Assembly (NCBI GenBank): GCA_017471825.1
Contig: JAFURQ010000027.1
Coordinates: 59,478 to 123,477 of the forward strand
Direction: 5' to 3'
DNA length: 64,000 bases
Origin: Clostridia bacterium
GTDB taxonomy: Bacteria > Bacillota > Clostridia > Oscillospirales > CAG-272
Under the pieces are notes generated by a model that saw nothing but the letters and a program-made list of their open reading frames with translations, was not told the DNA's origin and ran no database searches. The position numbers and the translations under genes were made by a program. Positions 28,970 through 36,627 of this stretch are shown piece after piece (position 1 is the first letter of the stretch; each line of letters begins with the position of its first letter).

Positions 28970-30178
28970 TTAAATGCTTTTTTTCGCAATAGCTGTGAAA
29001 TATGGACGCATATTTTCGAGAATTTCATCCTCAGTTTCAGCCGAGGGACAATCTGTCCAAAGACAGAAACCGGCGCCCTTTACTTTTTCATTTGGGGCAG
29101 AAATAATGTTTCCGGGCATGAACGGAGGAAAAATGTAAGTATTGTCGGTTGTACACTCAGAGTTCTTGGGAGCAAAAATGTAAGGATTCCACTCCTTCAT
29201 AATAGCCTCCGGAGTAACATACGAGGGTGCTTTATCCGGGTAAAGCGTGTAGTAGGTATAAAGCCTTGCAAAATTATATACATTGTGTCCCTTGTCAATA
29301 TAAAATTGCGCTGTGCCCTCGCCGTTATTAGTGTGCGGCGACCAATACTGTATGTCTATCGATTTGTCGATTTCTGCCGCGCATTGCCAGTCCGTATCGG
29401 ATATGCGATAAACGTCATCATTCCACATGCGAACTGATTCGTAGCCGATGCTGCGCAGAAGTGCCGTAATATCGTTCATATAGAGTATGAAGGCATCGTA
29501 TGCAACAGCGTTTTCTTTTCCTGTGCGAACTTTTGCATATTCCTCCCAGTGATCAAGGTTAGACCACTTGGAAACGGTGGGGTCAATAAGCTCCGCGCCT
29601 CCATCCGAGCAGCTCGTCACCTCCGATGTCAAAGCTGCGGCAACCAAGCTCATAAAAGAATTTGCCGTATTCGGTGTATATCTCTCTCGCAAAGGCAACC
29701 GCCTCGGGGTTTGATATATCTATTCCTCGGGAATACAAATTCTGTGATGTTTCGTTGCGTTCGCCTGTTGATTGAACAAGTGAAACCTTTCCGTGCTTGT
29801 GGAAATAGTTGCCGAGGTCAACTCCGTATTTTTGGTGGTATTTTTTTTGTTTTTAGCCTTAAGGTAGCCGTCGTTAAGACAGTTTTCAAGGAAAGGTCTG
29901 TTATCATACCAATACCAATCGTAAATGAATACGTTGATTCCGTGGTTGTAAGCACAGTTGATCTCCATTTCCATAACATCGGGGTTCGCTTCGTTTACGT
30001 ATCCCCATAAAGGCTGCCTGTCCCACACGTAATCAGCAGGCTTGTCGGCGCTGTTCTTTAGAACGTTTTTTACTGTTTACCATTCTCCAAATCCTTCTGG
30101 CCAAAACATTCTTGCACGCAGATCATCACCTGTATATGCCGGCCATACATATGCGGCAACATCATAGTTTTGTTTCAT
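28970..30178 (-). pseudogene. composite decayed glycosidase locus: GH99-like (WbsX-type) N-terminal part joined to a GH20-like part, with one nonsense codon and at least two frameshifts
   Basis: From the ATG at 30178 the translation reads MKQNYDVAAYVWPAYTGDD...GFGEW*TVKN..., with TAA at 30077-30079, then ...PLWGYVNEANPDVMEMEINCAYNHGINVFIYDWYWY. The frame is lost at the A/T tract near 29840. The next frame gives ...SFDIGGDELLGW (GH20 H/D-GGDE-like), with another shift near 29600. The last frame is ORF 28970..29698. Confidence 0.6.
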
Positions 30179-30252
30179 ACGCAACTCCTTACATTGATTG
30201 CTTCAGGTGCTAGTTAATTATAGTTTATCAATGATAAATAGTCAAGTGGTTT

Positions 30253-30274
30253 CTCTCAAATTTTATTTATGCAG
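30253..30274. repeat. 22-nt perfect repeat, copy 1 (ctctcaaattttatttatgcag), covering the stop and flank of spoIVB relic 3
   Basis: An identical 22-mer occurs at 31852-31873. Confidence 0.85.
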
Positions 30275-30388
30275 CTTTTGGTATTACTCCGTTTTGTGCG
30301 CGGTCCCAATCGGTAACGCTTGCAACGTAAATGAGTATAACATGGGTCACCGCGCCGATAAGCTCGCTGTTTTGAATGATATATAAGC
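30267..30388 (-). pseudogene. degenerate relic of the spoIVB 3' end (third copy)
   Basis: The reverse frame reads GLYIIQNSELIGAVTHVILIYVASVTDWDRAQNGVIPKAA*. The intact SpoIVB reads [47 protein letters not shown]. Confidence 0.5.
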
Positions 30389-30417
30389 CATTCCGGTGTG
30401 TAACAAAGATAATAAGT

Positions 30418-30660
30418 TTATTTTATTTCTTGTTCCAGCTTGTTGAATTCTTCGGTGTTGAAAAATTCAATCAGTGTTATTCCAAAACCGTCACAAAGCA
30501 TTTTTAAGGTCACTATTCCGGGATTTTTGCTTTTTCCGTATAAAATATTTTTTATTGACGAGGGAGCGACCGCCGATTCCATAGCAAGCCTGTGTATTGA
30601 CATTTTTCTTTCGCCCAGTAATTGTAATATTCTGTTTTTTACCGTAGTGTAAGTATCCAT
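30418..30660 (-). CDS. XRE-family helix-turn-helix regulator (80 aa)
   Basis: ...ERKMSIHRLAMESAVAPSSIKNILYGKSKNPGIVTLKMLCDGFGITLIEFF is a Cro/CI-type HTH. Confidence 0.8.
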   Translation of the reverse strand: MDTYTTVKNRILQLLGERKMSIHRLAMESAVAPSSIKNILYGKSKNPGIVTLKMLCDGFGITLIEFFNTEEFNKLEQEIK

Positions 30661-30694
30661 TCTTGCTTCTCCTCAAAATACTTTAGTTTAATTG

Positions 30695-30755
30695 TAGCCT
30701 AAACTCCTTGACAAAATGGGCTATATATGATACAATGTAGGCTATAAGTAGCCTT
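30695..30755 (+). promoter_or_regulatory. divergent promoter region with candidate operator half-sites
   Basis: TTGACA (30708-30713) is followed by a 17-nt spacer and TACAAT (30731-30736). TAGGCTA-taag-TAGCCTt forms an inverted repeat at 30738-30755, and another TAGCCTA lies at 30695-30701. Confidence 0.5.
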
Positions 30756-30782
30756 ACGGCTATTGGAAAGGAAGAAGTTAAA

Positions 30783-31724
30783 ATGAATAAACTATCTGTT
30801 ATTAATCCAGAAGATATTAATTCGGAAGACCTTGGTGCGTTGTGGGAGGAAACCAAGAAAAGACAAGCGGAGCTCGTTGCAAAAAGCAACGATTTAGAAT
30901 TAAAAATAAAAAATGAGTGTAAAGAGGTTTATCAAAGAAGCATAACCAATTCTGAAAACCAATTTGCAGCTGCATCAGGAAGAGTTAAAGAAATGATTAA
31001 AAGCAGAAATAAGTGTAGGCGTTCGCTTTCAAAATCGGCAGGTGCGGTTTTTCTTTATGCTTTTATAATTATTTGCTTATCCGTAGTTGTTAATCTGTTC
31101 ATTTTAAAGCTTGAAATAGTAAGTCCCGTGCTTACATATTTAATTTTCGCTGCGGCATCGTTTGTTATTTCCGGAATAACGGTTAAGCTTCGCAATAATC
31201 AACTTAAGAAAAAAATTACACAAATAAATGAAGATGAAGAAATTCTTGAATATGATAGAGCTGAAGCTGAAGCGGGTACACAAATAGAAAGAGAAATTGA
31301 TTACATAGAAAATGAAAAGTATAAGGCTGAAAGAGCAGAAATAGATAGATTGATGAAGGAAAACAACTATGAGGCTGTATTAAACGCTGTAATGAAACAG
31401 AAATACGGCGACACAGTTATGTTTTATTTTAAAAAATTTTCTTCGCTTAGCTATTATGAAATAAAAATGGACGGCGTAGTGTTGTTTAGTTCTAAATCTG
31501 TCAAATATCAACAAGTCAGACTTAATCCCGGTTATCATACAGTAACACTGATTCTTACGACTGAAACAAGTGAAACTATTTACACTAACACATTTACATA
31601 TCAGTATTGTGAAAGTGATTTGCCCGTATTTTTTGTTTGTTCGGAGGTTTGCGGTATAAGCGGCAGATTAAAGCAAGTAGATGCCGAAGCATTCCAAAAG
31701 GAAAGCGGCGTAAACATTTTGTAA
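30783..31724 (+). CDS. hypothetical membrane protein: coiled-coil N-terminus, two TM helices, charged coiled-coil, C-terminal beta-rich domain
   Basis: This 313-aa ORF is divergent from the XRE gene. No family was recognised. Confidence 0.6.
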   Translation: MNKLSVINPEDINSEDLGALWEETKKRQAELVAKSNDLELKIKNECKEVYQRSITNSENQFAAASGRVKEMIKSRNKCRRSLSKSAGAVFLYAFIIICLSVVVNLFILKLEIVSPVLTYLIFAAASFVISGITVKLRNNQLKKKITQINEDEEILEYDRAEAEAGTQIEREIDYIENEKYKAERAEIDRLMKENNYEAVLNAVMKQKYGDTVMFYFKKFSSLSYYEIKMDGVVLFSSKSVKYQQVRLNPGYHTVTLILTTETSETIYTNTFTYQYCESDLPVFFVCSEVCGISGRLKQVDAEAFQKESGVNIL

Positions 31725-31821
31725 TTAGTATTTATTTTTATTGTAATTGTGATACAGTGTAGTTTCTAAGCAATCTGAAAAGTATACATTTTATTGCTCT
31801 CATAGAGCATATAAAGTAAAT

Positions 31822-31856
31822 ACAAAAAGAGAGGGAAGCCTTAGGGCAACCCTCTC
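31822..31856 (-). terminator. rho-independent terminator (minus strand)
   Basis: The 7-bp stem gagaggg...ccctctc is followed by TTTTTG on the minus strand. Confidence 0.6.
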
Positions 31857-31873
31857 AAATTTTATTTATGCAG
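31852..31873. repeat. 22-nt perfect repeat, copy 2 (ctctcaaattttatttatgcag)
   Basis: It is identical to 30253-30274, but here it lies 38 nt downstream of the xylA-fragment stop. Confidence 0.85.
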
Positions 31874-31910
31874 TTGTTTCGCCTTTTGGATAGCAATTTC
31901 AGAGTAGCTT

Positions 31911-32367
31911 TTATCCAAACAGCGTTCTGTTCAGAACGCTCTCCAAATATTCCTGTCTGCCGCTGTTCGGTGTCGGGCAAGTGCGCATTTTTTCCGCGTG
32001 TTCTGCAAGCTCGGCAAGAGTTGTTTTTCCTGCTCTTATCTTCTGTCCAAGCTCGCTGTTAAAGCTCGAGTATTTTTTCTCAACGAACATATCAAGCTCG
32101 CCGTTCTCGATGAGCTCTGCGGCCTTGATAAGACCGAGCGCAAAGGTATCCATACCAAGAATATATGCATAGAACATATCCTCGTAGGTGTTTGAGGGTC
32201 TGCGGTTTTTTGCATCAAAGTTGAGGCCGCCCGTAAGACCGCCTGCCTTAAGCACCTCGTACATGCACATAGTGCTCTCGTATACGTCGTACGGAAACTC
32301 GTCAGTATCCCAACCGAGCAAATAGTCGCCCTGATTTGCATCAATAGATCCAAGCATTGAAAATGGC
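31911..32367 (-). pseudogene. xylA: xylose isomerase, C-terminal fragment only (about 150 aa)
   Basis: GSIDANQGDYLLGWDTDEFP...GGLNFDAKNRRPS...MDTFALGL is the XylA C-terminal third. The upstream part of the frame is unrelated sequence. Confidence 0.75.
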
Positions 32368-32673
32368 TTGTTGCGTGCTATATTTGATTTTATTGATAAC
32401 AATTTTAACAAAAGCTGTACTCTTGAGGATTTGAGTATCGCCATTGGATATAACAGCTCCTATCTCTCCAGATATTTCAAGGAATTTACCAATATGACGT
32501 TTGTTTCCTGCGTCAACCGATACAGAATCAGCAGGGCATGCTATATGTTAAAAAACAGTGATAAAACAGTGCTTGAATGCGCATACGAATGCGGATACAA
32601 ATCCTTGAGGAGCTTTAACAGAAATTTTATGCTGTACGTTGGGGTAACACCAACCGATTATAGAACAAACTAA
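32368..32673 (+). pseudogene. AraC-family HTH domain fragment (no sensor domain)
   Basis: The 101-aa fragment covers only the two-HTH DNA-binding domain (LEDLSIAIGYNSSYLSRYFKEFT..., ...ECGYKSLRSFNRNFMLYVGVTPTDYR). It abuts the xylA fragment head to head. Confidence 0.55.
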
Positions 32674-32685
32674 AACAAATAAAAA

Positions 32686-32728
32686 AGCAAAATCAGACCT
32701 GAAACGGAATGATTTTGCTTTTTATTTT
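32686..32728. terminator. bidirectional terminator-like hairpin
   Basis: The 10-bp stem agcaaaatca ... tgattttgct is flanked by an A-run and a T-run. Confidence 0.6.
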
Positions 32729-32873
32729 ATGCCGCCTTCGGCATAGCATTGAATTCTGCCGCGTTTAGCATATTCTCAATGAAAATTCCATACCCTTCAG
32801 TTGGATTTGCTACCATAACGTGAGTTACAGCGCCGACGAGCTTCCCATCCTGTATGATAGGGCTGCCTGACAC
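32727..32873 (-). pseudogene. displaced relic of the spoIVB 3' end (48 codons plus stop; second copy)
   Basis: It encodes [47 protein letters not shown]. It is colinear with the last 48 codons of the intact gene, but the DNA has diverged by roughly one position in four to five. Homology stops abruptly after atagggctgcctgaca (32857-32872), which is identical to 35618-35633. Confidence 0.75.
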
Positions 32874-32898
32874 GAGTGTGTTCAAGTAGGGACAACAG
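32874..32898 (+). repeat. 22-nt motif copy A (gagtgtgttcaagtagggacaacag), abutting spoIVB relic 2
   Basis: It matches 35312-35334 at 22 of 23 positions. Confidence 0.8.
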
Positions 32899-33082
32899 AT
32901 TTTAACAAATTATTGACATCTTCGACACCATTTATTGAGAAAAAACGTCTTTAGTCGTAGTATTTTAGCATATTTGCCACCCAAACAGCTGATAGCGAAC
33001 TATTTTTCTTGATTTTTTAACGTTTATAAGCGAGGGAATTCATAGGACGATTCCCACCCAAATAATTTTTGTTTCCATTGTT

Positions 33083-33229
33083 TTACTTTGGATTTTTTTG
33101 GGCCTTCTTTGACGATTGTTGATTTTTCTTTTTGTAATAATCCCATATAGCAAACTTCTGTTTGCGGCGGTTTTCGAGTGTTATGTTTTTTGATGGTTTG
33201 CCCTTTTTCAAAAAAGGAGATTTAGGCAT
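33083..33229 (-). CDS. possible 48-aa lysine-rich peptide, translationally coupled to the upstream gene
   Basis: The peptide is MPKSPFLKKGKPSKNITLENRRKQKFAIWDYYKKKNQQSSKKAQKNPK. Its ATG overlaps the upstream stop (ATGCCTAA). It could be a chance ORF in AT-rich DNA. Confidence 0.25.
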   Translation of the reverse strand: MPKSPFLKKGKPSKNITLENRRKQKFAIWDYYKKKNQQSSKKAQKNPK

Positions 33230-34019
33230 TGCTATCACCCCCTAAAATGAAATTTTCTTTTTCGTCAAATTTTCCGTTTTCAACGAGTATGTTTATTTGC
33301 TTGGATATTTCTTCGTTCGGCTCGCGCATTGTTTTCTCAAGTAAAAGTATTTTGCTGACATTGTAAATAGGAATAGAGTACAAAGTGTCAAATTTATCTT
33401 TTTCGAAATATAACAAATACCAATGCTCTTTTTTTACCGAAAACTCAAGCGCTGCGCAAAGAGCGCGTATAACCCTGCCGCCAATGTTAAATTGAAGAAT
33501 AAGCTCGTTCTCTATAGCCTCGTTCAGTTTGTTATACTCCTCGTTAAAGCAAATTCGCTCTTTTTGATATTCGGACTGATTAAAGTATTCGTGAATTAAA
33601 TTGCGAAGATATGCGCTGCGTTTTATTCCTATAGAATCAAGTCTGGCAAACAGCTCTGCATATAAATCTTCGTTTTTAACGTCAAATCGAATATTAATAA
33701 TATCATCGCACTCGTATTCGCTTTCGTCAAAATACAAGTAATCAAATGACTCGGCTAAAAAGTCGAGTATTTTTTCTTGCATTCCTTCAGCTATGCTTGC
33801 TTTAATGTTTTTATCAAGATATTCGCGCAAAAATCCTTTCTTGTAAGCGCGATAAGCAAGCATGTTAGGAAGCATTTTGTTGAAAAATTCATTTTCGTTT
33901 CCAAGTCCGTTTTTCTTAATGAAATTTCTTTTAGAAACTTCAGCGGTCATAAGTCTTGCTAACAAGCTCGGAACACGTAATGTCATTGTTTGTGGGTAAA
34001 ATTTATCTCTCATAATCAT
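33222..34019 (-). CDS. hypothetical protein with a WYL-like C-terminal region (possible ligand-sensing regulator)
   Basis: The segment ...ILQFNIGGRVIRALCAALEFSVKKEHWYLLYFEKDKFDTLYSIPIYNVSKILLLEKT... fits the WYL pattern (x-WYL-x(8-12)-hydrophobic-x-[IL]-x-R/N-[IV]). The N-terminal part is unassigned. Confidence 0.5.
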   Translation of the reverse strand: MIMRDKFYPQTMTLRVPSLLARLMTAEVSKRNFIKKNGLGNENEFFNKMLPNMLAYRAYKKGFLREYLDKNIKASIAEGMQEKILDFLAESFDYLYFDESEYECDDIINIRFDVKNEDLYAELFARLDSIGIKRSAYLRNLIHEYFNQSEYQKERICFNEEYNKLNEAIENELILQFNIGGRVIRALCAALEFSVKKEHWYLLYFEKDKFDTLYSIPIYNVSKILLLEKTMREPNEEISKQINILVENGKFDEKENFILGGDSNA

Positions 34020-34178
34020 AGTATATCATAAATGTAATGCAAAATCAATATATTTTTTGATATATATCAAGTAATATTCACTATTCTTAATAAATAAGTG
34101 TAATACAATATATGAATGCGATTGTATGCTATTATTCTTGTTTTGCTAGTGCTATAATATGAGTGCAATCAAAAAAGA

Positions 34179-34207
34179 TTGACAAATATATGAAAGGATG
34201 TTATAAT
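34179..34207 (+). promoter_or_regulatory. perfect consensus sigma-A promoter
   Basis: TTGACA (34179-34184) is followed by exactly 17 nt and TATAAT (34202-34207). The first ATG of the downstream ORF is at 34211. Confidence 0.6.
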
Positions 34208-34210
34208 TTT

Positions 34211-34702
34211 ATGGGATTAATAAAACTTGTTAATCAGTGGGTATATAAGCACTCTCGAAAGCCGGAGCATTACAAAAGAGTGAAAAATCCGCCAAAAACG
34301 ATTTCCGAAAAGATAAAGCGACCACAAGATGCACGTCAGCAACAGTATAACAATTGGTGCAAAAGATATGGCGTGTATAGCGGTTCATATTTGCCGAAAA
34401 ACCCGGATGCTCTTACGCGAAAAGGGTGGAGAGAAACCACTAATGTGAAAGATAAGACTAAAAAGCATAGGGAATTCCAACGCAAATCAACTTCTCAGAT
34501 GGTTCGATATGATAGCAAAGAGTTCAAAAAAGGGCGATATGAAGATGAACACTACCACTGGGAAAACGCCAAAAGCATTAAAGAAAGAAGAAAGCTTGGC
34601 GAGATGGAAAAATATGTTGATAGGTATGGAAACGTGTGCGCGGATGGCTCCAAGGAGTCGCACTTAGCACCAAAGGACAAAACGTACAACTTTAGGAGAT
34701 GA
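34211..34702 (+). CDS. small, very basic protein resembling a stand-alone polymorphic-toxin C-terminal (nuclease-type) module
   Basis: MGLIKLVNQW...LPKNPDALTRKGWRETTN...HREFQRKSTSQMVRYDSKEFKKGRYEDEHYHWENAK...YVDRYGNVCADGSKESHLAP is Lys/Arg-rich and has His-containing motifs (H-Y-H-W, S-H-L). The start is uncertain: GTG at 34163 or ATG at 34211. No family was assigned with certainty. Confidence 0.5.
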   Translation: MGLIKLVNQWVYKHSRKPEHYKRVKNPPKTISEKIKRPQDARQQQYNNWCKRYGVYSGSYLPKNPDALTRKGWRETTNVKDKTKKHREFQRKSTSQMVRYDSKEFKKGRYEDEHYHWENAKSIKERRKLGEMEKYVDRYGNVCADGSKESHLAPKDKTYNFRR

Positions 34703-35133
34703 TTACAATGAAAAAGCAAGAGTTATTAGATCTGCTTAACAAGGCGGCTGATAGTATAAATTTGCACGATGCAAGCATGTATGGCTTCAAGTGGATAAAC
34801 AGCACCGTTGAGTTTATTATATGTCTTGGCAGCTATCACTATATCATTAACGAGTTAGAAGAACTTGTCGACGATGTAAATAACCGTGTTGTTTTAACCT
34901 TGAAATTTGATGGTATTGAAAATGTTGAATGCGAGTTTTGCGAAGATTTCAGATACGACGATGCTGAAATAATGGAAAATAATCAGCTTGAAAACGGAAC
35001 TTTTGAATTTGTTTTTTTAGAATGCGGTAACCCCGGTAAAATATCATTTAGATATACCAAATTTGAGTGGGATGTTGTTGGTGAATTCGATTATGAGCAA
35101 ATCAAACAGTGGTGTAAAGAAAACGGGCTATAA
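34699..35133 (+). CDS. acidic 144-aa protein, immunity/antitoxin-like partner (speculative)
   Basis: Its start overlaps the upstream stop (ATGA). It is acidic. The pattern LHDASMYGFKWINSTVEF...VVLTLKFDGIENVECEF... resembles immunity proteins of polymorphic toxin systems. Confidence 0.55.
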   Translation: MITMKKQELLDLLNKAADSINLHDASMYGFKWINSTVEFIICLGSYHYIINELEELVDDVNNRVVLTLKFDGIENVECEFCEDFRYDDAEIMENNQLENGTFEFVFLECGNPGKISFRYTKFEWDVVGEFDYEQIKQWCKENGL

Positions 35134-35222
35134 AAAGGAATATATGGATATATCTCTTGATATAGATATGAACATCACCATAACATAAGTTCTATATGAT
35201 GCGGCATTGTCCAGGGAATACC

Positions 35223-35246
35223 AGTGTGTTATAATAGGGATAACAC
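35223..35246 (+). repeat. 22-nt motif copy B (agtgtgttataatagggataacac), degenerate
   Basis: It shares AGTGTGTT-A-A-TAGGGA-AAC with copies A and C. It is also internally palindromic (gtgttat...ataacac). Confidence 0.65.
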
Positions 35247-35283
35247 AATTACTATTAAAATCGAATAATGCTCGGACGAAAGA

Positions 35284-35297
35284 CTGTTGTCCCTATT
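35284..35297 (-). repeat. inverted partial copy of the 22-nt motif (ctgttgtccctatt)
   Basis: It forms a perfect 12-bp inverted repeat with 35323-35334 (aatagggacaac) across a 25-nt spacer. Its 12 nt ctgttgtcccta are the exact reverse complement of tagggacaacag at 32887-32898. Confidence 0.8.
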
Positions 35298-35311
35298 ATA
35301 ACTCACTCGTG

Positions 35312-35334
35312 GAGTGTGTTCAAATAGGGACAAC
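35312..35334 (+). repeat. 22-nt motif copy C (gagtgtgttcaaatagggacaac)
   Basis: It matches copy A at 22 of 23 positions. Confidence 0.8.
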
Positions 35335-35340
35335 TTTTTC

Positions 35341-35470
35341 TATAATCAAGCGAAGCGAATCGACAAGCTTGATTGTCAGCAAGCGAGCGCAGATTGCCCC
35401 GCGAGCGCTCCGTAAACGGAGCAATACACGAAGTGCCGCCGCTCGAGCGGCGAAGCTCGCAAGGAGTATA
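35341..35470. repeat. GC-rich cluster of short palindromes just downstream of the spoIVB stop
   Basis: The palindromes are aatcaagc...gcttgatt (8 bp), gcgagcgc in two direct copies, ctccg-taaa-cggag, and the 16-nt perfect palindrome cgccgctcgagcggcg. Confidence 0.7.
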
Positions 35471-35487
35471 ATTTCACTTTTTCCTCA

Positions 35488-36627
35488 TTACGCCGCCTTT
35501 TGCTGCACCTGACTTTCTGCCGCGTTTAACATATTCTCTATAAAAATCCCGTATCCTTCCGTTGGGTCAGCAACCATCACGTGGGTGACCGCTCCAACTA
35601 ATTTCCCATCTTGTATAATAGGGCTGCCTGACATTCCGCGGACGATGCCGCCCGTGAGGGCTATCAGGGTTGGGTCGGTGACCTTGATTTTGAAGGATTT
35701 TGAGCCGGTTGAGGAGTAGTCAACGTCCTTGATTTCGACGTTGAATATACCGCGCTTGCCGTTCTTGACTGTTGAAATTATTTGTGCCGCGCCGCATTTT
35801 ACCTCGTTGCTTTTTGCGGCGGGCATCAGCTTGTCGCAATAGTCGGGTAGGGTATCGAGCGTACCGAAAACGCCGCACTCGGAATTTTTGGCAATAGAGC
35901 CGAGTGTTGCTTGCTTCAGCACTCCCGTAAGCTCGCCTGCGTGTCCGACCTCGCCCTTCTTACAGCCGCCGAGAGTTACAGAGTTAACCGTGCCGCTTCT
36001 GACGCTGACGTAGCCTGTTCCGTCTGCGGCGGAGACCCCGTGACCAAGACCGCCAAAGGCGAGCGTTTCGGGATCGATAAACGTGACAGTGCCAATGCCT
36101 GCGGTGTGAGCGCGAAGATTTACGCCGAGCTTGTAGACTCCGTCACAGAGCTTGGGTACGGCGGTTACGTTAAGTATTTCTCCGCCTCGAATTATTTCAA
36201 GCTCAAGCTTTTTACCGCCGGAATTTTTCACCGCATCCTCCACCTCGGAGCATTCGTGGACATCTTTACCGTTTACCTTTAATATTCTGTCACCGACAAG
36301 GAGCACGCGTGAGGAGGAGCCGCTTGTCACGGATACGCCGTCCTCGTTAATTATAAGCCCAAAGGCAGAGCCGCCGGGGTATAGCATAATAGCCTCGTCG
36401 TCTTTCCTTTTACCGCCGAAGAAGAGCTCGTAGATTCTTGAGGAAACCTCAACGTTTTTTGATACCGCAGCAACGCCGCCGTCGCTTAAGGTGGCAGGCG
36501 TGTAACATTTTTCACTGTATAAATCGGCAAAACCTGCTGATGCAGAACCGCTGACGGCGGTGCCGAGCAGGCACGCAAGCATACAAACAGCGGTTGTAAA
36601 TTTTAACAATATTTTTCTCATTCCCAT
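35488..36627 (-). CDS. spoIVB: SpoIVB peptidase (S55 family, PDZ plus serine protease)
   Basis: There is a signal/TM N-terminus and a PDZ-like region. GTVTFIDPETLAFGGLGHGV contains the catalytic His, and GMSGSPI contains the catalytic Ser. Confidence 0.85.
   Translation of the reverse strand: MGMRKILLKFTTAVCMLACLLGTAVSGSASAGFADLYSEKCYTPATLSDGGVAAVSKNVEVSSRIYELFFGGKRKDDEAIMLYPGGSAFGLIINEDGVSVTSGSSSRVLLVGDRILKVNGKDVHECSEVEDAVKNSGGKKLELEIIRGGEILNVTAVPKLCDGVYKLGVNLRAHTAGIGTVTFIDPETLAFGGLGHGVSAADGTGYVSVRSGTVNSVTLGGCKKGEVGHAGELTGVLKQATLGSIAKNSECGVFGTLDTLPDYCDKLMPAAKSNEVKCGAAQIISTVKNGKRGIFNVEIKDVDYSSTGSKSFKIKVTDPTLIALTGGIVRGMSGSPIIQDGKLVGAVTHVMVADPTEGYGIFIENMLNAAESQVQQKAA

Follow-up and report, generated by a model that had tools for sequence, protein, structure and literature searches.

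We consider it likely that a region of the Clostridia DNA analysed here is a fossil stack of mobile cassettes which docked serially at a single point in spoIVB, a sporulation protease gene that is essential for the signal from forespore to mother cell. The DNA is a stretch of 64,000 nucleotides (nt) from contig JAFURQ010000027.1 of assembly GCA_017471825.1 (positions 59,478 to 123,477, hereafter the window), and the region in question, 30250-35640, runs from the 3' part of an intact spoIVB across three further pieces of the same gene end. Four things are shown by the sequences: the homologies between these pieces and spoIVB ends elsewhere, the junction architecture in related genomes, the link of those junctions to large serine recombinases (LSRs), and the lack of a cognate recombinase in the window. 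The island is without that enzyme and looks like a fossil stack. On the sequence evidence, the window records at least two, and probably three, displacements of the spoIVB end.

Four spoIVB ends in a low-GC island

The spoIVB gene of the window is continuous by both its open reading frame (ORF) and its Pfam match, with no element splitting it. Junction alignment places the docking point after the ATG at 35632-35634, immediately 5' of the codons for the catalytic Ser-Gly-Ser-Pro (SGSP) motif, and the present functional 3' end of the gene is accordingly 35488-35631. From ~35400 to 30200 the G+C content is 30-40%, against ~50% in the flanks, and the ORFs across this interval are all accessory or broken. 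This low-GC DNA contains, within 5.2 kb and all in one orientation, four spoIVB ends with accessory or decayed genes between them: the functional end, relic 2, a tail with terminator that we call site 4, and relic 3. The features that bear on these ends are as follows.

35488..36627, minus strand: intact spoIVB, 379 amino acids (aa); Pfam Peptidase_S55 (1.4e-68) and PDZ domain
35340..35470, minus strand: GCel, a GC-rich dispersed repeat of ~130 nt, preceded by TTAT, with ACTCCTTGCG at its start and CTTGATTAT at its end
35286..35334: degenerate attP-like palindrome (forward arm, CAC, inverted arm), from a repeat search and arm-profile matches
32874..32896, minus strand: conserved right-end arm GTTGTCCCTACTTGAACACACTC (profile match E 1.8e-9), followed by GTG at 32871-32873
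32727..32870, minus strand: relic 2, a displaced spoIVB end of 47 codons and stop (Pfam S55 4e-18; DNA profile E 9e-37)
32677-32728: terminator of relic 2 (hairpin z -5.4)
31823..31892, minus strand: site 4, comprising gene-end tail ..YPKGETTA* (31866-31892), 22-mer (31852-31873) and terminator hairpin with U-run (31823-31856)
30267-30392, minus strand: relic 3 as a whole, reading frame NGLYIIQNSELIGAVTHVILIYVASVTDWDRAQNGVIPKAA*
30339..30392, minus strand: relic 3 head, spoIVB-derived (NGLYIIQNSELIGAVTHV), in register with SGSPIIQ..GAVTHV
30282..30338, minus strand: relic 3 middle, derived from the 5' part of GCel with an internal deletion, inserted after CACGTTAT
30253..30281, minus strand: relic 3 tail, CCAAAAG CTGCA TAA (PKAA*) at 30267-30281 with the 22-mer at 30253-30274

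Relic 2 is 85% identical to the functional end in aa and 82% in nt. Its head is abutted by the arm at 32874-32896 and the GTG, giving an arrangement of the attR type in which an arm borders the displaced half of the target at a fixed dinucleotide. A DNA profile made solely from the gene ends of 19 intact spoIVB copies in other genomes was scanned against the whole genome, a 90%-complete metagenome-assembled genome (MAG) of 1.63 Mb in 33 contigs. It revealed no further spoIVB relics in either the window or the genome.

The palindrome behind the functional end is one base short, is centred on CAC and is accompanied by a third arm-like copy at 35220-35245. Its inverted arm is the left-end sequence of elements that split spoIVB in relatives, and its position suggests a repair of the attL x attR type in a formerly split gene. 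A Logan contig of the same strain (L044) terminates at 35279, beside the palindrome, for which the inverted repeat or population heterogeneity may be responsible.

The docking point and its recombinases in relatives

The initial annotation had proposed that one integration hot spot at spoIVB was used repeatedly, and the related genomes bear this out. Extra C-terminal spoIVB pieces lie downstream in 11 of 40 relatives, starting at aa 328-337 or 348-350, and one of these genomes, from another family, has three relics. Two or more spoIVB matches were present in 22 of 251 genomes sampled evenly across the order; re-searching 20 of these 22 with the last 70 aa showed that relics begin at aa 331-333 in at least 12 families. 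The junctions share a conserved arm of 23 nt; the consensus there is AAAAnTGTTGTCCCyWWTTGAmmACACTC, followed by GTG (rarely CTG) and then by the SGSP codons. This arm is present at nearly all inspected relic junctions in relatives, the worn exceptions being G012, which lacks it, G241, where one of two junctions is degenerate, and G233, where it is eroded. The strict pattern of arm, GTG and SGSP codons has at least 119 matches in species genomes. The matches listed are all in MAGs of gut Clostridia (Oscillospiraceae, Ruminococcus, Oscillibacter, Flavonifractor, Lachnospiraceae and others), with one match being an IMG/VR contig. Among these listed matches, an intact spoIVB is found 0.76-6.4 kb upstream of the arm, and on its strand, at 46 of the 119 loci, which is the layout of the window.

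The link to recombinases comes from loci where the arm has LSR genes beside it (12 of 119 among the matches listed). In about 10 of them tandem LSR genes read into the arm and stop some 25 nt short of it, and on the 31.8-kb IMG/VR contig genes for LSRs of 528 aa and 568 aa are joined by a third, ending about 25 nt before the arm. We typed the tandem recombinases of relatives by their Pfam domains: genes combining Resolvase, Recombinase and zinc-ribbon domains stand by the attachment site in relatives, and none does so in the island (30200-35640). All 10 LSR-bearing genomes examined have a spoIVB whose 5' part stops at aa 333 and is apart from the 3' part (one contig has the 3' part only). In G276 (C1:106714-179885) a distance of 72 kb separates the two parts, which share a contig and a strand. 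In this genome and in G277-G285, with their arm-adjacent tandem recombinases, no spare spoIVB end is present. G037 is unlike the others in that its spoIVB is intact and is followed, 16 nt on, by the start of a gene for a 594-aa recombinase.

Left junctions in eight split genes read ..CAGGG(C/G) ATG (T)GAGTGATATATAATAGGGACAAC, or ATG GTAGTGAGTTATAATAGGGACAAC, which is the inverted arm. Combining left and right ends, we infer an attP of ~50 bp with inverted half-sites around TG, namely GTTGTCCCTAyTTGAmCACACTC, (G)TG and the inverted arm. Inverted half-sites around a central dinucleotide are the usual attP design for phage-type serine recombinases (PMC5595907).

Third-codon identity between the window and G003 is 0.71 in the 40 codons before the break and 0.38 in the 40 after it, a drop that is consistent with exchanged spoIVB ends. 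Blocks of 86-98% identity are common to arm loci of different species genomes. A donor phylogeny was powerless because each end offers only about 120 nt and these species are saturated with respect to one another at synonymous sites: whichever species is compared, identities over 120 nt and 54 nt stay within a single band of 73-81%, with third positions saturated. Downstream synteny is not conserved, polA lying behind the relic in G010 and on the opposite side of spoIVB in the window.

Beside the relics at aa 331-333 there is a second class that starts at aa ~349-352, after THV (L040 in G125; L026 and L027 in G005 and G003). Those of G003 and G005 follow from insertion of GCel and deletion, and G125 has three such pieces stacked. 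No recognisable spoIVB was found in G008, G019 and 17 of the 251 order-sample genomes, and only fragments in G009, G011 and G013; in G011 two relics remain without an intact spoIVB.

Relic 3, site 4 and the history of the stack

The head of relic 3 is heavily decayed. The initial annotation had read relic 3 as a degenerate spoIVB C-terminus, NGLYIIQNSELIGAVTHVILIYVASVTDWDRAQNGVIPKAA*, and the frame does read so at 30267-30392 (minus strand). Its descent from a spoIVB 3' end holds for the head and the tail. It does not hold for the middle, VASVTDWDRAQNGV (about 30282-30338), which comes from the GC-rich dispersed repeat. The protein-level evidence for relic 3 is weak yet correctly placed: Pfam Peptidase_S55 gives E 0.0036 and 17.8 bits, under the 25-bit cut-off, at profile positions 177-195, which is the correct location, and in a tblastn search of the genome with the SpoIVB C-terminus relic 3 is the third-best match (E 0.063; following match E 19). 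The DNA-level evidence is decisive. The foreign-end profile matches 30335-30380 on the minus strand with E 5.3e-7 genome-wide, the next match being at 0.039; the similarity to spoIVB is significant. The first 54 nt have 56-70% ungapped in-register identity to 29 other spoIVB ends, compared with a maximum of 50% in 2000 shuffles. Finally, blastn aligns 75 nt of relic 3 (30306-30380) with relics of three relatives, the identity being 76-79% (E 9e-13 to 5e-11).

This last alignment crosses the boundary between spoIVB and GCel. Because relic 3 aligns across it to GCel-bearing relics, the VASVTDWDRAQNGV peptide is not SpoIVB sequence. A reading of VASVTDWD in the middle as a diverged VANPTEGY was rejected, the DNA aligning better to GCel. 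What is spoIVB-derived in relic 3 is only the first ~55 nt and the last 15 nt, the internal deletion of GCel having also taken codons ~350-375. GCel interrupts the outermost relic at one and the same spot in six related species, and the insertion after CACGTTAT recurs in relics of G003, G005, G010, G012 and G023. Those of G010, G012 and G023 read SGSPIIQ..GAVTHV-IL up to the GC-rich insert of about 125 nt and resume with VA(D/N)... In relics GCel starts ACTCCTT(T)GCG after ..CACGTTAT and ends ..CTTGATTAT, and relic 3 holds it at the same position as the arm-bearing relics of G010 and G023. Judged by these alignments, relic 3 appears to be the counterpart of the outermost relic in related species.

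GCel itself is dispersed and genus-specific. It is present at no more than eight copies per genome, often at contig ends, in nine of 16 genomes of the genus including the window's own, and in none of 10 genomes of other families. The copy at 35340-35470 lies 20 nt past the stop of the intact spoIVB, and G003 and G005 have an insertion of the same kind directly behind their intact spoIVB. A further copy is at G000 C32:56849-56908. The repeat is hairpin-rich, inserts after ..TTAT (or ..CCAT), ends ..GATTAT, has no obvious terminal inverted repeats and has no Rfam match; these features are reminiscent of miniature elements derived from IS200/IS605.

The tail of relic 3 and site 4 share a perfect 22-mer, at 30253-30274 and 31852-31873, for which 0.00 occurrences are expected in shuffles. 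These are its only copies in all 33 contigs (1.63 Mb), which disposes of a genome-wide dispersed repeat. The second copy is preceded by the XylA2_C fragment (31911-32444) and followed by a hairpin and U-run, as the initial annotation had described. Past the stop codon of the xylA fragment, the minus strand continues with 21 unrelated nt, TATCCAAAAGGCGAAACAACTGCATAA (YPKGETTA*), ATAAAATTT, the hairpin GAGAGGGTTGCC-CTAA-GGCTTCCCTCTC and the U-run. A simple terminator scan overlooks this hairpin owing to its loop rule; folding reveals it (-21.9 kcal/mol, z -4.5). The relic 3 copy of the 22-mer gives no hairpin on folding (z +0.6), because the sequence breaks after GAGAG, inside the terminator stem, and runs into a TTGACT-17-TATAAT promoter (30217-30245).

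The 22-mer takes in the final two sense codons, the stop codon, the spacer and, of the terminator stem, the 5' half. In G007 and G005 the outermost relic is followed by a terminator that matches the one at site 4 (AAAATTTGAGAGGGTTGC..GCTTCCCTCTC; blastn E 3e-7 and 1.6e-5, respectively); the stop-to-stem spacer is about 45 nt in those genomes and 9 nt in both window copies. The sole difference between the two tails is a 9-nt insertion in site 4, and CCAAAAG is common to both. The 22-mer would then be the shared stop-to-terminator piece of one resident, lineage-specific version of the gene end. As the tail is identical and lineage-specific, site 4 and relic 3 are best regarded as two copies of one end and not as ends from different donors, and two independent imports seem unlikely. 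Site 4 may never have been a functional gene end. The second copy could have arisen through a cassette headed by site 4 that copied the resident end, or through local duplication or recombination. The earlier picture of three to four stacked generations of the gene end is supported by the four ends over 5.2 kb, with the caveat that site 4 and relic 3 are best regarded as copies of one end.

The history that we favour for the stack starts from a docking point at the TG of the Met codon directly before the catalytic SGSP codons. In relatives, autonomous elements of 30-70 kb, with LSRs, often two or three in tandem, at the right end, split spoIVB. Small recombinase-less cassettes instead have a spare spoIVB end first and the arm last; since such a cassette supplies the spare end, spoIVB stays intact and the previous end is stranded behind the arm. 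Read outward from the gene, the ends in the window are the functional end, relic 2 with its arm, site 4 (last eight codons, stop, spacer and lineage-typical terminator) and relic 3, with the copies at site 4 and relic 3 on either side of the unit that contains the XRE-type gene and an orphan ORF. The 31911-32673 interval is the decayed cargo of the second cassette, its AraC and XylA2 fragments fused by deletion. Relic 3 would have acquired GCel after CACGTTAT, lost the middle of GCel together with codons ~350-375, and had its terminator removed. We infer both the order of these deletions and the action of the same recombinase reaction at the two oldest junctions.

A number of observations weigh against this history. 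There is no recombinase gene in the island (30200-35640), and the 90%-complete genome has only distant LSR homologues (no more than 30% identity) on other contigs. Neither a profile nor a fuzzy search detected an arm next to relic 3 or site 4, for which reason serial integration there is argued from homology to the arm-bearing relics of relatives; a faint likeness by eye of TTGTTACACACCGGA to an arm end at the oldest junctions was discarded as not significant. The perfect 22-mer and the common CCAAAAG contrast with the heavily decayed head of relic 3, a contrast more in keeping with a later local duplication or recombination than with two separate dockings long ago. Over this locus three other assemblies show 100% identity, with no within-species gain or loss and no empty or alternative sites. 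Finally, for this enzyme class no route is known by which a cassette that starts with a gene end instead of an inverted arm would be recombined.

Some of these points lend weight to a scenario in which only relic 2 and relic 3 record dockings. Site 4 would then have come about secondarily, when either a local tandem duplication of 1.6 kb or recombination of a circular copy with the resident relic tail copied that tail, followed by two deletions. The tails identical over 22 nt, the CCAAAAG and shortened stop-to-terminator spacer that they have in common, and the absence of an arm from both sites would all be accommodated, as would the circularly permuted layout of tail, terminator, cargo, relic body and tail. 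Such a scenario requires one duplication and two deletions, however; the unit between the 22-mers is AT-rich orphan cargo resembling that of other cassettes, and a gene end with terminator at the cassette head is a common architecture elsewhere. We regard it as a credible but unlikely account. A different possibility is that homologous recombination with relatives' DNA brought in the stack, in one piece or bit by bit, the spoIVB and relic ends serving as homology arms, with no recombinase-driven build-up in this lineage. The missing cognate recombinase, the blocks of 86-98% identity between arm loci of different species genomes and the third-codon identity shift at the break would fit, but import accounts for the spread of the arm-relic junctions and not their origin, and the cargo in the window is orphan; we find it rather doubtful.

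Two further explanations fare worse. Relic 2 is open, well conserved over 47 codons and equipped with its own terminator, as might be expected if the relics were silent spare ends for swapping the SpoIVB C-terminus. Yet every copy is in direct orientation, the encoded peptides are nearly identical and leave nothing to vary, and relic 3 and site 4 are broken, which together make cassette variation very improbable. Coincidence, for both the likeness of relic 3 to spoIVB and the repeated 22-mer, could appeal to a Pfam score below the family cut-off, but is next to impossible given the foreign DNA profile (E 5e-7), the blastn matches to relics of relatives (E 9e-13), the failure of all 2000 shuffles to attain the observed identity and the expectation of 0.00 for the 22-mer in shuffles.

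A tentative and less probable extension of this reading would see the catalytic-serine codon of spoIVB as a cassette platform of gut Clostridia that is served in trans by tandem serine recombinases. The gene end at the start of a cassette would re-create the docking site at the left junction, the right junction of arm and old end would act in an attP-like manner, and cassettes could be piled up, cut out and reshuffled in much the way of an integron. The palindrome at 35286-35334, behind a 300-nt piece composed of gene end, GCel and arm, would be the footprint of attL x attR repair of a split spoIVB.

Relation to known systems and cargo of the stacks

The closest analogues of the stack are the composite islands of the staphylococcal cassette chromosome (SCC). 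In staphylococci, SCC, SCCmec and pseudo-SCC elements build up into such islands where rlmH (orfX) has its 3' end, and are moved by the Ccr large serine recombinases. The likeness extends to docking that targets a conserved chromosomal gene in its 3' part and keeps the reading frame, to serine recombinases that often occur as a gene pair, to accessory cargo, and to recombinase-less cassettes in tandem with the target sequence repeated at each junction. The window conforms to this pattern with its intact 379-aa spoIVB and three downstream end pieces in direct orientation. It differs in that the target is spoIVB at its catalytic-serine codons, in that the repeat is about 145 nt of coding sequence compared with the 15-18-bp site of SCC, and in that the autonomous spoIVB elements split the gene.

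Intervening elements in sporulation genes (skin in sigK, SPbeta in spsM, gin in gerE, vfbin and yin) are excised by large serine recombinases (PMC5595907). They too split a sporulation gene with an element that has one to three serine recombinase genes, and their attP is an inverted repeat around a central dinucleotide (PMC5595907). Those elements sit in mother-cell genes and are excised in the terminal mother cell, whereas the spoIVB of the window is unsplit and carries a spare end. In B. subtilis spoIVB is made in the forespore, which is the germ line. Excision there would strip the element from the germ line, which raises the question of how lysogens sporulate.

Island accretion by tyrosine integrases at tRNA and transfer-messenger RNA (tmRNA) genes is similar in that the incoming element brings a new 3' end and old ends accumulate outward as direct repeats, but here a protein-coding gene is targeted, the enzymes belong to the serine recombinases and the cassettes, at 0.8-6 kb, have a much smaller size. 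Integrons, for their part, share short, mostly promoter-poor, recombinase-less cassettes at one platform, with the newest nearest the platform and each ending in a conserved recombination site. The differences are the lack of an IntI tyrosine recombinase, attI or folded attC, a platform inside a gene, and cassette mobility that is here putative. No tyrosine recombinase turned up among the island ORFs in a general Pfam scan, which was not a search aimed at one.

In gut Clostridia spoIVB proves to be a new, widely used docking site for serine-recombinase elements, with two modes of element, one splitting the gene and one preserving it through a spare end. Our search of the literature found no paper connecting spoIVB with serine recombinases, attB or intervening elements. 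The stacks collect accessory genes, among them sugar-utilisation genes accompanied by AraC regulators, genes for collagen-like surface proteins and toxin-like modules, and the arm with GTG and SGSP codons provides a simple sequence signature by which such genes can be located. The recombinases, with a defined site of ~50 bp, are candidate integration tools.

Cargo between relics in relatives comprises AraC, DeoR or LysR regulators with sugar genes, collagen-like and BspA proteins, Fic and a beta-lactamase-like protein. The pairing of AraC-type regulators with sugar or sugar-acid genes recurs in L024 (G011), L021 (G037), L031 (G233) and 31911-32673 of the window, the genes being of xylose isomerase-like, iron-containing alcohol dehydrogenase, class II aldolase, enolase-superfamily, GH10 and GH3 kinds. 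Proteins of 628-1184 aa with collagen repeats and BspA-type leucine-rich repeats are encoded directly behind spoIVB in three genomes of three families (L022:2587-4473, L033:1472-4510 and L035:1502-5056), and may be spore-surface proteins. As a sign of recent transfer among the three families this cargo was rejected, its identity being only 27-53%.

The remaining features of the island and its outer border are these.

33222-35133: three unknown ORFs, island cargo
32368-32673, plus strand: C-terminal fragment of an AraC regulator (Pfam HTH_18/HTH_AraC)
31911-32444, minus strand: C-terminal fragment of XylA2 (XylA2_C)
30783-31724, plus strand: orphan 313-aa membrane/coiled-coil ORF, in the unit between both 22-mers
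30418-30660, minus strand: XRE-type helix-turn-helix gene (Pfam HTH_26), part of the unit 30418..31724 between both 22-mers
29720-30184: frameshifted WbsX-like pseudogene

The 313-aa ORF was considered as a tracer for cassette mobility and dropped, no homologue having been found in the 40 relatives or in 5.8 billion protein clusters. An Rfam scan of 29.5-36.8 kb gave nothing relevant. The near-perfect TTGACT-17-TATAAT promoter at 30217-30245 on the minus strand begins 8 nt past the 22-mer of relic 3 and, with a good ribosome-binding site, lies upstream of the frameshifted WbsX-like gene.

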